DNA of 64,000 bases from an uncultured Actinomycetota bacterium. GTDB lineage: Bacteria; Actinomycetota; Actinomycetes; JAHEKZ01. The stretch lies in NCBI GenBank assembly GCA_963743915.1, contig CAVURN010000002.1, forward strand, positions 352,001 to 416,000, in the 5' to 3' direction. This document shows positions 36,084-39,505 of the stretch, in pieces. Below the pieces are notes generated by a model. That model was not told where the DNA came from. It did no database searches and was given only the letters and a program-made list of their open reading frames with translations. Position numbers and translations under genes: made by a program. Numbering within the stretch: the stretch's first letter is position 1; each line of letters begins with the position of its first letter.

Positions 36084-36226
36084 CGATTCTCGGGGCCCAG
36101 TGTCGGTCACCGCACGCGATGCGTGCGGAGGGTGACCACGGCACGGCCGGTGCGGACTGCATCGCGGCGTTCCGGGGTCATCGGGGGGATCCGACCGTGC
36201 GGTCGGGTCGGACGAAAGGTGCAGGA

Positions 36227-36718
36227 GTGACCGACTACGCCAAGGCGCTCGGGGCGCGTCTCCGGGCCATTCGACAGCAGCAGGGCCTCTCGCTCCACGG
36301 GGTGGAGGAGAAGTCGCAGGAGAAGTGGAAGGCCGTCGTCGTGGGCTCGTACGAGCGCGGCGACCGCGCCGTCACCGTCCAGAAGCTCGCCGAGCTCGCC
36401 GACTTCTACGGCGTCCCGGTCAGCGAGCTGCTCCCCGACAACAGCCCGGCGGCGGCCGCAGAGCCTCCGCCGCGCCTCGTGATCGACCTCGAGCAGCTCA
36501 GCCAGGTGCCGGCCGAGAAGGCCGGTCCCCTCGCCCGGTACGCGCAGACCATCCAGAGCCAGCGCGGCGACTACAACGGCCGCATCCTGTCCATCCGGCA
36601 GGAGGACCTGCGCACCCTCGCCGTCATCTACGACCAGTCGCCCGGGGCGCTCACCGAGCAGCTCATCAGCTGGGGCGTCCTCAACCCCGAGGCACGCCGC
36701 GCACTCCCGCTCGACTGA
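36227..36718 (+). CDS. bldD: BldD family transcriptional regulator
   Basis: YAKALGARLRAIRQQQGLSLHGVEEKS..WKAVVVGSYERGDRAVTVQ; c-di-GMP motif RGD-x8-RQED; divergent from pyrR. Confidence 0.93.
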   Translation: MTDYAKALGARLRAIRQQQGLSLHGVEEKSQEKWKAVVVGSYERGDRAVTVQKLAELADFYGVPVSELLPDNSPAAAAEPPPRLVIDLEQLSQVPAEKAGPLARYAQTIQSQRGDYNGRILSIRQEDLRTLAVIYDQSPGALTEQLISWGVLNPEARRALPLD

Positions 36719-36731
36719 CGGCCACAGCCGC

Positions 36732-36799
36732 CGAGTGGTGCGCTCCCACCATTTCAGGCCGCCTGCGGGGGCCAGATCTGCCTGGAGCGCACCTCTCGA
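36732..36799. repeat. 68-bp palindromic element, copy 1
   Basis: CGAGTGGTGCGCTCC...GGAGCGCACCTCTCG inverted arms; homologous to 37943-38010. Confidence 0.85.
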
Positions 36800-37841
36800 C
36801 TGTGACGTTCCCGCCCGAGCACCACGAGTCCCGGAGGCGGGCGCCAGGGCTCACGCCGCCGTTGCTGCGCCCTCCTGCGCCAGCGGTCCATGAGTCCGTC
36901 TGCGTCGTGCCGCACCTCAGCGTCGCTCCAGCGCACGACGTGCAGGCCGGCCACGGTCTCCAGCCACTCCTGGCGCCGCTTCTCTGCGTACAGAGCGCCG
37001 GACGCTTGCGCTGGCACAGCCGGGGGCTCCAGCGTCTCGTCGTACTTGAGCCGGCCATCAGCCTCACCCGCGATGCCGAGGTGCAGCCACAGGTCGTCCG
37101 GACGGAACTCGACACCCTCGAAGCGGATGACGGGGTTGCAGTGCGGCATCGGCGCACCACGAACCAGCAGCTCACCGCGACCTCGTGACTCCAACGGAGA
37201 CTCCGAGCAAGCGTCAGACCACATCAGGGTCCGCCTGGCACGGACGCACCCTCGGACCGGGCCGCGTGTCTCCAGCATCACCTGCATGAGGTCTCGATCC
37301 GCCCCGCGCGCGAGCGCAGCGTCGACGGTGACCAGCGCCTGCGGCTCGGGGAGGTCGACGGCGATGTCGACGGCGGTGCGTTCGAGGGTGGTGACCGCCA
37401 GACCTTCATGGACCACGACCGGTGGCGGAGTCACCGAGCGCAGGGTCCGCACGCCGACGAGTTGACAGGTGTTCCGAGGCCGCAACACTTCGGGACGGGG
37501 TGGGATCCCCGACACGGGAAGACCCCAGACCAGCGCGGCCGAGCGGAGACCCGCCACCGCCAAAGGGCTGACGGCAAGGGCGGCCGCCAGACGAGTCAGG
37601 TGGTCGCGGCGACCCGCCACCCAGACGTCGCGGACCGATCCCGAGGGCCGCGCTCCGCATGTGCAGGGGACAGGACGTACCGACCCCTTTCGACCCGCAC
37701 CAGCTGACCACGACGCACCAGGCGTGCGATGTCGTGGTCGGCCAGCCCGGCGCTGGTCAGCTCCGACGCCGTGATGGCCCCTCCGCGTACGGACATGCGT
37801 CGCAGTACATGGGGTGGGAGATCTCCGGGACGTGGAGGCAT
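36754..37841 (-). CDS. AbiEi-like winged-HTH plus PD-(D/E)XK-like (DUF559/Vsr-type) nuclease-domain protein (frameshift ~37650)
   Basis: N-terminus GGAITASELTSAGL...LVRRGQLVRVERGRY; SAALVWGLP, VTTLERTAVD, ALVTVDAAL, SESPLESR, RPDDLW...GEADGRLKY, EKRRQEWL...VVRW. Confidence 0.78.
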
Positions 37842-37942
37842 CGCGACACCATGCCCGGCGGTGCCGTCCCGTGTCCGGAGAACTTCCCTTGCTGTGGATG
37901 ACGAGGGCCACGCGTGACCACGCGCCGGCCACTACCAGGTGT

Positions 37943-38010
37943 CGAGTGGTGCGCTGCACGCATCAGGGCCGCGTTGAAGACGTCGAATCTGCGTGGAGCG
38001 CGCCATTCGA
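37943..38010. repeat. 68-bp palindromic element, copy 2
   Basis: (T)CGAGTGGTGCGCT-G-CACGCA...TGCGTG-G-AGCGCGCCATTCGA; same length and orientation as copy 1. Confidence 0.85.
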
Positions 38011-38028
38011 GGATGGCGCGCGGGGACG

Positions 38029-39505
38029 TCAGCGGGGGTAGCCCGATCGCCTCGTCGTCGAGCGGGCCGGTGTACGCCGGTGCTGCACCGGCCACGGCAT
38101 CGCCGATCCGGTGCACGCGCATCGCGTTCGTCGATCCGGGGATGCCCGGAGGGCTGCCGGCGACGATCGTGACGTGATCACCGATGGAGCACCGGTCGAA
38201 CTCCAGCAACCGTGCCTCGACCTGGCGCACCATGTGGTCGGTGTGTGTCACCGGATCGACCAGGTAGCTCTCGACGCCCCAGGTCAACGACAGCTGGTTG
38301 CGCACCTGGGGGTCAGGAGTGAAGGCCAGGAGCGGCACCGACGAGCGGTACCGCGCGAGGACCGTGGGCGTGCGCCCGGTCTCGGTGAACGCGACGAGGA
38401 ACTTCGCGCCGAGCTGGTTGGCGACGTGGACCGCCGCCCGGCAGATGGCGTCCCCCTTGGTGGTCGGCAGCCCCTCGACCCGCGGGATGCGGTCGAGTGC
38501 GGTGTCCTCGATCGACTCGATGATGCGTCCCATCGTCGCCACGGACTCGATGGGAAAGCGTCCGATGCTCGTCTCTCCGGAGAGCATGAGGGCGTCCGCG
38601 CCGTCGAGGATGGCGTTGGCGACGTCGGACGCCTCCGCCCGGGTGGGCCGGGACGCACTGATCATCGACTCGAGCATCTGCGTGGCGACGATGACCGGCC
38701 GACCCTTCTCGCGGGCCAGGCTCACGGCGTGCTTCTGCACCAGTGGCACCTGCTCGAGCGGAAGCTCGACGCCGAGGTCGCCGCGGGCGACCATGATGCC
38801 GTCGAAGGCGTCGAGGATCTGCGGAAGGTGGGCGACGGCCTGGGGCTTCTCGATCTTGGCGATCACCGGTCGGTGGATGCCCTCGTCGTCCATCACCTCG
38901 AGCACCGGGTCGACGTCCTGAGCCGTCCGCACGAAGGAGAGCGCCACCAGGTCGACCCCCTGACCCAGGGCCCAGCGCAGGTCGTCGACGTCCTTGTCGG
39001 ACACCGCCGGGACGCTGACCATCGCGCCCGGAAGGTTGATGCCCTTGGCGTCGGAGAGCGTGCCGCCCTCGACCACGCGGGTGATGACGGCCCGGCCCTC
39101 GACCGCCTCGACCCGTAGCAGCACCCGACCGTCGTCGACCAGGATCGGGTCCCCCGCCGCGACGTCGTCGGCCAGGCCGCCGTGGGTCGTGGAGACCATC
39201 TCCTGGTCCCCCGGGACGTCCTCGGCGGTGATCACGAAGCGGGCTCCCGGGCGGAGCAGCACCGACCCGTTCGCGAACCGTCCGAGCCGGATCTTCGGGC
39301 CCTGGAGGTCCGCCAGCACGCCCACGGCGCGTCCGCTCGCCTCAGCGGCCTGCCGCACCAGGGCGATCGACCGCGCGTGGTCGGCGTGGGTGCCGTGGCT
39401 GAGGTTGATGCGCGCCACGTCGAGGCCGGACTCGACCAGCGCCGCAACCGTGCCCAGCGTGCTGGACGCGGGGCCCAGGGTCGCGATGATCTTGGCCCGG
39501 CGCAT
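38029..39505 (-). CDS. pyk: Pyruvate kinase (probable extra base in the G5 run at 38034-38038 hides the stop at 38029)
   Basis: MRRAKIIATLGP, DLQGPKIR, AKIEKPQA, MVARGDLGVE, ATQMLESM, MLSGET. Confidence 0.96.

Follow-up and report, generated by a model that had tools for sequence, protein, structure and literature searches.

Palindromes of a private family bracket an inserted, frameshifted AbiEi-nuclease gene in an uncultured actinobacterium: a candidate cassette for homing-like palindrome copying

The window is a stretch of 64,000 nt from an uncultured member of the Actinomycetota. It holds, at 36732..38013 (no strand), an inserted block of about 1.3 kb composed of palindrome A, a nuclease gene and palindrome B, which separates the bldD stop codon from that of pyk. 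The left neighbour is a bldD-like regulator gene (36119..36718, plus strand, stop codon 36716-36718) with Pfam matches to BldD-like_C (E 2e-37) and HTH_31. The right neighbour is the pyruvate kinase gene pyk (38029..39505, minus strand, start coordinate approximate), matching Pfam PK and PK_C. Comparison with relatives places the native pyk stop at TCA, 38029-38031. In the assembly the ORF reads on through palindrome B as far as 37757 owing to one extra base near 38034-38042; the near-identical X1 and X2 contigs have one base fewer at 38039. No further gene is present within the 1.3-kb insert. In agreement with the preliminary description of this DNA, no AbiEii/DUF1814 toxin gene adjoins the nuclease gene, the neighbours being bldD and pyk.

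Palindrome A (36732..36799, no strand, 68 nt) is the copy at the 3' end of the nuclease gene and starts 13 nt past the bldD stop. Palindrome B (37943..38010, no strand, 68 nt) is the copy upstream of the gene, ~100-145 nt ahead of its start and 18 nt from the native pyk stop. The two have the same orientation, as first described: the first 13 nt are common to both (CGAGTGGTGCGCT), 20 of the last 24 positions are equal, and GGCCGC is present in each. Over the full length 44/68 positions are identical (16/68 with B reverse-complemented, ungapped). Covariance model R1 scores 74.7 bits for A and 76.6 bits for B on the plus strand. Each copy folds into a hairpin, again as described, with plus-strand ssDNA energies of -23.3 (A) and -22.7 kcal/mol (B), z of -5.2 and -4.7, and 0/200 shuffles reaching equal folding; on the minus strand z is -5.6 for A and -2.4 for B. 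The stop codon of the nuclease gene (36754-36756) is contained in palindrome A, so that the last ~15 codons are encoded by the palindrome.

The nuclease gene (36754..37841, minus strand) is frameshifted; its product joins an AbiEi module, made up of the wHTH and the AbiEi C-terminal domain, to a Vsr/DUF559-like nuclease. The start is ATG 37841, or ATG 37796 as in the orthologue P0001, which is intact, 346 aa long and 86% identical to the window protein. The frameshift (+2; 37657..37661, minus strand) consists of 5 nt (CATGC, coding strand) in place of 3 nt in intact relatives, and was called by comparison with P0001 and ~90%-identical relatives. Bases 37657 and 37660 are missing from a contig of run X5; no near-identical contig among those shown covers 37640-37670. 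The window gene has 81 homologues. A metagenome scan with P0001 gave one distant locus (33%) and no orthologous cassette in another context.

The N-terminal ORF (37596-37841, 81 aa) matches Pfam AbiEi_4 (PF13338, E 8e-9) over residues 19-57, which places the winged helix-turn-helix expected from the sequence at 37671..37787 (minus strand). PADLOC AbiEi models span residues 4-169 of P0001 (E 2.5e-9), and the AbiEi fold is found over orthologue residues 1-194, that is, the ~195 N-terminal residues (6y8q, Z 9.3; 1zel, Z 7.3).

The Vsr/DUF559-type PD-(D/E)XK nuclease domain lies at 36900..37210 (minus strand), in the frame 36754-37659 that contains SESPLES (37186-37206), RPDDLW, GEADGRLKY and EKRRQEW. 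These supply the nuclease motifs: E-S-x-x-E in SESPLES, D in RPDDLW, E-x-D-G-x-x-K in GEADGRLKY, and EKRRQ. Residues E198, S199, E202, D233, E244, D246 and K250 are invariant or nearly so among 44 homologues (alignment A2), and all seven are present in the window frame; by analogy with the Vsr family they are probably catalytic. Searches with the window C-terminal frame against Pfam, NCBIfam and PDB sequences gave nothing useful, and Pfam DUF559 (PF04480) does not match the window protein even at E 10. Of the 44 homologues, 8 match DUF559 and 8 match MTES_1575; the family profile reaches 3hrl only at E 0.064. Since sequence searches were unproductive, the fold was reached through homologues and a model. 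Residues 197 to 314-317 of an AF2 model of the orthologue (pLDDT 90) were compared with known structures, giving Z 9.9 to 3hrl (rmsd 2.5, 92/94 residues), Z 9.7 to 3r3p and Z 9.6 to 1cw0. As modelled, the C-terminal domain is of the Vsr/DUF559 nuclease fold, which agrees with the reading first made from its motifs.

The edges of the inserted block coincide, to within a few nucleotides, with the outer ends of the palindromes. No target-site duplication was seen at the block. Empty sites, which the preliminary description proposed to look for, do exist. Ten related loci carry bldD and pyk on a single contig; in all ten the two stops are 0-65 nt apart and no palindrome is present. A contig of run X5 parts from the window sequence at 36733 and from there enters the region of the pyk stop; the flanking contigs of this run are ~98% identical to the window and represent a metagenome strain with the empty site. 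Gene-less joints (36763>37954) occur in metagenomes of two studies. The gene and its palindromes are one unit, cleanly inserted between the bldD and pyk stops. In the other-genus genomes G015, G017, G018 and G019 the bldD-pyk gap is 0.7-1.5 kb and contains no homologue and no such palindrome.

Further copies of the window palindrome were sought in the 2.9-Mb genome with a profile and with covariance model R1. The family has seven strong copies, five of them lone and two bracketing the nuclease gene, an arrangement beyond what chance would give. All five lone copies begin directly past a gene stop, and four of them lie between convergent genes. No strong copy was found among 40 relatives; the family is private and is not the generic terminator or REP that the palindrome might have been. 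One lone copy is missing from the equivalent site in G005 and G010, as read from the sequence; in G011, match coordinates at the same site leave just 23 nt. An unrelated palindrome occupies this intergenic site in G009. At the site of lone copy C1:150603, the matches are 1.9 kb apart in G006 and 2.4 kb apart in G007, and no homologue was found in ~1.5 kb of each gap. Lone copies C3:190475 and C3:89387 are flanked by genes that do not lie next to each other in congeners. Four weak model matches in relatives lie 120-150 nt upstream of a homologue, each with a second matching copy at the 3' end of that gene. Mean pairwise identity of the window family is 0.62, the lowest in the genome (highest pair 0.73), against 0.89 for family F1, the gene of which is intact. 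Near-identical copies are lacking, so there is no sign of recent spread. With its gene carrying a +2 frameshift and its palindromes the most diverged in the genome, the window lineage is probably no longer active.

The genome encodes ten paralogues, at most 52% identical to the window protein. Eight adjoin palindromes (six with matching copies on both flanks, two on one flank); two, including the closest paralogue (52% identity), are without a convincing one. Most paralogue-flanking palindromes belong to private dispersed families of 3-25 copies. Families were defined by BLAST clustering; clustering by arm similarity merged unrelated GC-rich matches and was dropped. Copies are single palindromes of 60-90 nt, with nested forms in F3. 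The 70 palindrome sites comprise 31 convergent, 35 tandem and 4 divergent positions, on crude gene calls. Family F1 (model R2) occupies 25 sites here and 12 in G016, while the remaining 39 genomes have none. G016 is the sole relative of the 40 with a close orthologue of the F1-flanked protein (55%; next best 40%), and this orthologue is likewise flanked by R2 matches. Gene lineages correspond one to one with palindrome families, the two being jointly present or absent.

The same arrangement extends across the Actinomycetota. Eighty homologue loci were surveyed (alignment A4), 75 of them with full flanks. Palindrome density per kb is 1.42 upstream and 1.94 downstream of the gene, against 0.10 in the gene body and 0.10 in the far flanks. 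At least one palindrome is present in 54/75 loci and a matching sequence on both flanks in 45/75, compared with 0/31 control windows; 21/75 loci have no convincing palindrome. Flanking copies match each other in 20/23 loci and in 25/31 one-sided loci. The 3'-end palindrome often overlaps the stop codon of the gene. The relative orientation of the flanking copies is not fixed (9 direct, 7 inverted, 7 unclear). Palindromes are shared by 13/17 locus pairs at protein score ratios of at least 0.7, by 1/16 at 0.5-0.7 and by 0/1345 below 0.5. Homologues thus carry flanking palindromes of their own that change with the protein, an association anticipated from the window alone; sharing between close orthologues may be simple common descent.

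These data bear on whether the gene is a mere passenger among independent REP- or MITE-like palindromes that are spread by another mover and prefer gene ends, the nuclease genes being bracketed merely because they are recent insertions at gene ends. Such an account is very unlikely. It would accommodate the palindrome families with no gene nearby in the 90%-complete assembly (F4, with six copies, and several three-copy families) and the unrelated palindrome of G009. It does not fit the one-to-one pairing in eight of ten paralogues, the matching flanks in the survey as against none in the controls, or the behaviour of F1, which accompanies its gene in 2/2 genomes and is missing in 39/39 without the gene. 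No candidate transposase for the palindromes was found.

Regulation alone is a second alternative. The protein would be an autoregulated AbiEi-type repressor with a nuclease effector, for instance defence- or toxin-like; the upstream palindrome would serve as operator and the downstream copy either as terminator or insulator or as an additional operator that permits looping, while lone copies would be relics or decoys and the cassette would move by ordinary horizontal transfer and recombination. According to PMC7319586, AbiEi and Rv2827c repress their own promoters via paired inverted repeats of 23 bp that lie no more than ~131 bp from the start. The palindrome arms here are ~20 bp, a complete AbiEi makes up the N-terminal two thirds of the protein, and upstream copies end 42-197 nt ahead of the projected start, where by analogy an AbiEi-type operator would be located; the position of palindrome B is likewise compatible with autoregulation. 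Repression through the upstream palindrome is a live rival and is also compatible with palindrome copying. As the whole explanation it is rather unlikely, for the gene's 3' end bears the same palindrome again, often over the stop codon, and families of up to ~25 copies occur at the 3' ends of other genes, which is not where operators lie; just 4/70 sites are divergent. In addition, comparison with congeners shows one lone copy to be an insertion. A scan of 36500-38200 for a sigma-70-like promoter or an intrinsic terminator consensus gave neither, a point of little weight because actinobacterial signals differ.

A third alternative is transposition through single strands, in the manner of IS200/IS605 and RAYTs, with ssDNA hairpins (e.g. 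on the lagging strand) excised and reinserted directly by the protein. The layout resembles that of REPtrons and IS200/IS605 ends as given in PMC3337134, and both window copies fold strongly as single strands. The enzyme, by contrast, has a hydrolytic PD-(D/E)XK fold, and no Y1/HUH transposase (PF01797) was found in the 90%-complete assembly, whereas control genomes give matches; the absence of a RAYT was part of the preliminary description. The PD-(D/E)XK fold is not known to form the covalent intermediates that strand transfer needs. Stem covariation among the seven copies of the window family is not above that of shuffles, so a hairpin or cruciform is not favoured over plain duplex recognition. 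The wHTH is moreover of a type shown in PMC7319586 to bind duplex inverted repeats. This route is very unlikely. Of the palindrome-nuclease unit first postulated, the unit itself is upheld by the private family, the empty sites and the flanked homologues; a role for the ssDNA hairpin is not.

With moderate confidence, the locus is best explained as one decaying example of a type of single-gene cassette that occurs across the Actinomycetota and in which the nuclease would drive homing-like copying of its palindrome. A cassette of this class consists of an AbiEi plus Vsr/DUF559 gene bracketed by a lineage-specific palindrome of 60-80 bp that also occurs alone at gene ends. Binding of the two ~20-bp palindrome arms may fall to the wHTH modules, on the model of AbiEi and Rv2827c with their 23-bp inverted repeats. 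The nuclease would then nick or cut at the cognate palindrome and so start its copying. Host repair and recombination would copy palindrome-bearing DNA into the break in a homing-like manner; the host is needed since joining DNA is beyond a hydrolytic PD-(D/E)XK nuclease. Where the break at a lone palindrome is repaired from a cassette, the gene and two complete palindromes could be copied in. The reverse event, or recombination between two copies, could yield lone palindromes. Protein bound to the upstream copy probably represses the gene as well.

A broader proposal is put forward tentatively, with slightly less than even confidence: that a second system of the REPIN-RAYT kind, with an evolutionary origin of its own, is driven by AbiEi-wHTH/Vsr-like nucleases. 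Individual enzyme lineages would recognise and cut private palindromes, which host repair would copy without an HUH or DDE transposase, with the enzyme's own gene occasionally copied too. Up to ten such lineages would reside in one 2.9-Mb genome, and a large share of the short palindromic repeats of Actinomycetota would stem from them. To our knowledge, REP/RAYT, essentially confined to Proteobacteria, is the only described case in which a single-copy gene keeps up its own set of extragenic palindromes; no published account of an AbiEi-nuclease/palindrome partnership turned up in literature searches. If the proposal is true, partnerships of enzyme and palindrome arose more than once, here on an unrelated hydrolytic nuclease, and the source of many actinobacterial intergenic palindromes is explained. 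A large unstudied family, whose members are at present labelled no more than 'AbiEi antitoxin domain' or 'DUF559', would acquire a testable function, and such genes should not be read as orphan antitoxins in annotation. Each lineage would provide a natural protein with its ~20-bp arm pair, the lineages together forming a matched protein-DNA set.

Several known systems share part of this organisation. With MITEs and solo LTRs the locus has in common a scatter of short non-coding copies that are related to the ends of an element carrying a gene; gene-less forms of the locus occur in metagenomes. It differs in the lack of a DDE transposase and of target-site duplications, and in copies that are single palindromes, not two joined ends. 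IS200/IS605 elements, as described in PMC3337134, carry one enzyme gene between imperfect palindromes, and a single enzyme gene between palindromes at both ends is also found here. The present cassette, unlike these elements, has no Y1 transposase, bears complete similar palindromes in place of distinct left and right ends, and has a single-copy gene. Homing endonuclease genes resemble it in presence or absence between close relatives with exact edges; its intergenic position between two stop codons and the palindromes at both ends are different. The structures 3hrl, 3r3p and 1cw0 are placed in one clade in Table 1 of PMC3424549, and the modelled catalytic fold and conserved acidic residues ally the window protein with this Vsr/DUF559/I-Bth0305I clade. 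I-Bth0305I, in the account of PMC3239194, demonstrates that the same fold can serve a selfish homing element. In contrast to Vsr and I-Bth0305I, the gene here is not in an intron or intein, has no neighbouring cytosine methyltransferase in the window and is bracketed by palindromes. The AbiEi antitoxin fold (wHTH and C-terminal domain) is shared with AbiE type IV toxin-antitoxin systems; in place of an AbiEii/DUF1814 partner there is a fused nuclease domain, and further copies of the inverted repeat are present at the gene's 3' end and in other parts of the genome. From REPtrons the cassette differs in its enzyme, an AbiEi wHTH with a Vsr/DUF559 PD-(D/E)XK domain in place of an HUH/Y1 transposase, in being an insertion present or absent between close strains, and in host phylum, REP/REPIN-RAYT systems belonging to Proteobacteria and this one to Actinomycetota. 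Its families are also small (3-25 copies), whereas REPs of REP/RAYT systems run to hundreds of copies. In other respects the locus behaves like REPtrons. The gene is flanked by cognate palindromes (A and B here, both flanks in 6/10 paralogues), each single-copy gene lineage is tied to one dispersed family, several lineages coexist in the genome, and the repeats lie at gene ends. RAYTs are characterised in PMC3337134 in corresponding terms: a single-copy gene flanked by its own palindromes, a lineage tied to one repeat family, several lineages per genome, and repeats scattered at gene ends.

The nuclease gene and the two palindromes that bracket it form one unit, located between a bldD-like regulator gene (plus strand, stop codon 36716–36718) on the left and the pyruvate kinase gene pyk (minus strand) on the right. 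Both palindromes are 68 nt long. Palindrome A (36732–36799) lies at the 3' end of the nuclease gene and holds its stop codon; palindrome B (37943–38010) lies 100–145 nt upstream of the gene start. They match in the same orientation at 44 of 68 positions, with the first 13 nt identical and 20 matches in the last 24 nt. As single-stranded DNA (plus strand) they fold with z-scores of −5.2 (A) and −4.7 (B), and none of 200 shuffles folds as well, which confirms the hairpin pair of the preliminary description. Two models built from the window palindrome family itself, a profile and the covariance model R1, detect seven strong copies (A and B included) and two weak candidates in the home genome (G000; 2.9 Mb, five contigs).

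The nuclease gene is on the minus strand and broken. Its N-terminal ORF (37596–37841) encodes a winged helix of the AbiEi_4 type (Pfam E 8e-9); the remainder is in another frame (36754–37659; stop codon 36754–36756, within palindrome A). The frame break is located by P0001, an intact orthologue of 346 aa, 86% identical: the window has 5 nt at 37657–37661, P0001-type sequences 3. A metagenome contig about 90% identical to the window lacks two of the 5 nt, and the context is no homopolymer. Sequencing error at 37657–37661 is conceivable, because the site is spanned by none of the near-identical contigs shown. Palindrome A encodes the protein tail RSRQIWPPQAA, also found in P0001 and in the homologue P0038. 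The latter is an orthologue variant with an internal deletion that keeps the palindrome-encoded tail.

AlphaFold models P0001 with high confidence (pLDDT 90). Residues 1–194 resemble 6y8q, an AbiEi antitoxin (E 4e-7 by Foldseek; Z 9.3), and also Rv2827c (1zel). Residues 197–317 resemble three structures that belong to one PD-(D/E)XK clade (PMC3424549, Table 1): 3hrl, a DUF559 protein (Z 9.9; 92 of 94 residues at rmsd 2.5), 3r3p, from the homing endonuclease I-Bth0305I (catalytic domain; Z 9.7), and 1cw0, which is Vsr (Z 9.6). Of the 81 homologues found, 44 were aligned; across them the nuclease domain keeps its acidic and lysine residues invariant or nearly so, and the window frame has them intact. 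Pfam scans of these 44, one by one, give AbiEi_4 in 30, DUF559 in 8, MTES_1575 in 8 and AbiEi_1 in 3. PADLOC recognises the AbiEi part alone. Both the AbiEi-type N-terminus and the nuclease-like C-terminal domain read earlier from the sequence are thus borne out, and no AbiEii gene is adjacent, the neighbours being the bldD-like regulator and pyruvate kinase.

At the right edge, pyk carries one extra base (GGGGGTAGCCC region, 38029–38045), six codons ahead of the native stop, and its ORF is thereby extended by about 90 codons through palindrome B to 37757. Near-identical contigs of metagenome runs X1 and X2 have one base fewer at 38039, so the extra base probably reflects an error of assembly or a change specific to this strain.

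The unit was inserted between bldD and pyk. Ten related loci, nine from congeners and one from another genus, carry both genes on a single contig; in all ten, the stop codons of bldD and pyk are 0–65 nt apart and there is no palindrome. Twice, in congeners (loci L003 and L006), the stops overlap in a shared CTAG, leaving zero intergenic DNA; the window cassette entered a bldD–pyk junction of such a very tight kind. Metagenomes were compared through Logan contigs (four runs, four studies). A contig of run X5 tracks the window up to 36733 and from there passes directly into the sequence around the pyk stop; the X5 contigs of bldD and pyk match the window at about 98% identity and have greater depth than the X5 cover of the nuclease gene. 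From this contig and the empty junctions of relatives, the insert edges are therefore the outer ends of A and B, within a few nt. No target-site duplication was seen at these edges. A gene-less form with 36763 joined to 37954 keeps palindrome sequence (contigs in two studies), and a second deletion form joins 36954 to 37967 (another contig); each joint is one low-depth contig, placed at 85% likeness.

The arrangement recurs. Of the ten paralogues of the nuclease in the home genome, six are bracketed by matching palindromes and two have palindromes on a single flank; no convincing palindrome is found beside the remaining two, the closest paralogue (52% identity) among them. Separate dispersed families account for most of the paralogue palindromes. 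By strict palindrome scan of the genome, families F1, F2, F3 and F5 have 16, 12, 11 and 5 copies, the others 3–4; F1 rises to 25 sites with its covariance model (R2). F3 consists of nested palindromes of 85–89 nt, an outer GCCGAGTGCGGCGCTGGATGA arm pair enclosing an inner GTCGAGTGCGC pair; two of its 11 copies are identical (examples at C1:243190–243278, C2:554987–555075 and C5:370201–370289). The paralogue at C5:20874 has an F3-like element upstream. F4 (GATCTTGAGGTTGGGGGCAGAC...) has six copies, at C1:115004, C1:534523, C2:771374, C2:782513, C3:231272 and C3:549715. No nuclease gene is near F4 or several 3-copy families in this assembly, which is 90% complete; these may be orphan families.

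R1 gives ten weak hits in relatives; four of them sit 120–150 nt upstream of a homologue (35–45% identical), and every such gene has another matching copy at the 3' end. Across 80 homologue loci surveyed in species-representative genomes (26–52% identity), palindrome density per kb is 1.42 over the 330 nt upstream, 1.94 downstream, and 0.10 both in the gene body and in the far flanks. The 75 loci with full flanks have a palindrome upstream in 33, downstream in 44, on both sides in 23 and on neither in 21. Matching copies occur in 20 of 23 two-sided pairs and a partner-like match lies across the gene in 25 of 31 one-sided loci, compared with none of 31 control windows, by a cut-off chosen after these controls scored at most 11. 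Matching sequence is thus on both flanks at 45 of 75 loci. A cassette class of nuclease gene with its own palindromes is well supported.

Gene and palindrome are paired one to one. Palindromes are shared by 13 of 17 locus pairs at a protein score ratio of at least 0.7, 1 of 16 at 0.5–0.7 and 0 of 1345 below 0.5, so that sharing is confined to loci whose proteins are very similar. This shows specificity, not independent co-evolution, because close pairs are partly orthologous loci. The two also co-occur. In 40 relatives (unpublished genomes G025 and G033 included) R1 gives no hit above 47 bits and no orthologue of the window gene is found. R2 finds 12 sites in G016, of a different genus, and none in the other 39 genomes; among the relatives, the F1-flanked protein has a close orthologue in G016 alone (55% identity; next best 40%), and R2 hits flank that orthologue too. 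The age of a palindrome family fits the state of its gene: mean pairwise identity is 0.62 (maximum 0.73) in the window family with its broken gene versus 0.89 in F1 with its intact gene. The window locus is an old, probably inactivated member of its class.

The five other window-family copies all lie just past a gene's stop, four of them between convergent genes. At the lone copy C1:150603, which sits between a convergent gene pair, the same intergenic site reads as empty in two genomes, G005 and G010. By match coordinates, only 23 nt remain there in G011 and the gap is 1.9–2.4 kb in G006 and G007; G009 has a different, unrelated nested palindrome (CCGAGTGCACACCTGGT...; L133, 2190–2310). The site looks like one hit recurrently. 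Two further lone copies are uninformative on empty sites, their synteny being broken. Palindrome copies prefer gene ends and shun promoter regions: of 70 family palindromes, 31 fall between convergent, 35 between tandem and 4 between divergent genes, against 346, 1150 and 343 for all adjacent gene pairs (crude gene calls).

The AbiEi module would bind both palindrome arms of about 20 bp, since AbiEi and Rv2827c are described as binding pairs of 23-bp inverted repeats (PMC7319586). The nuclease may then cut at the palindrome, and host repair would copy palindrome-bearing DNA into the break. Such a homing-like route is preferred over a RAYT-like single-strand route because the fold is hydrolytic and a genome search gave no Y1 transposase. 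A break in a lone palindrome, mended from the cassette, would leave two complete palindromes around the gene, the layout observed. The homing-like route does not explain palindrome arrival at a palindrome-free site or the varying relative orientation of the flanking copies (9 direct, 7 inverted, 7 unclear). The upstream copy is also likely to mediate autoregulation, a role that is compatible with mobility.

An AbiE toxin–antitoxin pair is rejected on the lack of an AbiEii gene. Identity as a classical homing endonuclease gene is likewise rejected. Among the papers listed from the DUF559, RAYT/REPIN and extragenic-palindrome literature (subscription journals and preprint supplements outside scope), no published description of this gene–palindrome class was found, nor any work joining DUF559 with palindromes or RAYT/REPIN with Actinobacteria. 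RAYT family membership is rejected, as the defining HUH/Y1 enzyme is absent here. The earlier proposal of a REPtron-like unit without a RAYT transposase is supported by gene-and-palindrome insertion, one-to-one pairing and the Y1-negative genome search. RAYTs are described as repeat-flanked, tied to one repeat type, single-copy and present as several distinct lineages per genome (PMC3337134), and on these four features the behaviour of the cassettes agrees.
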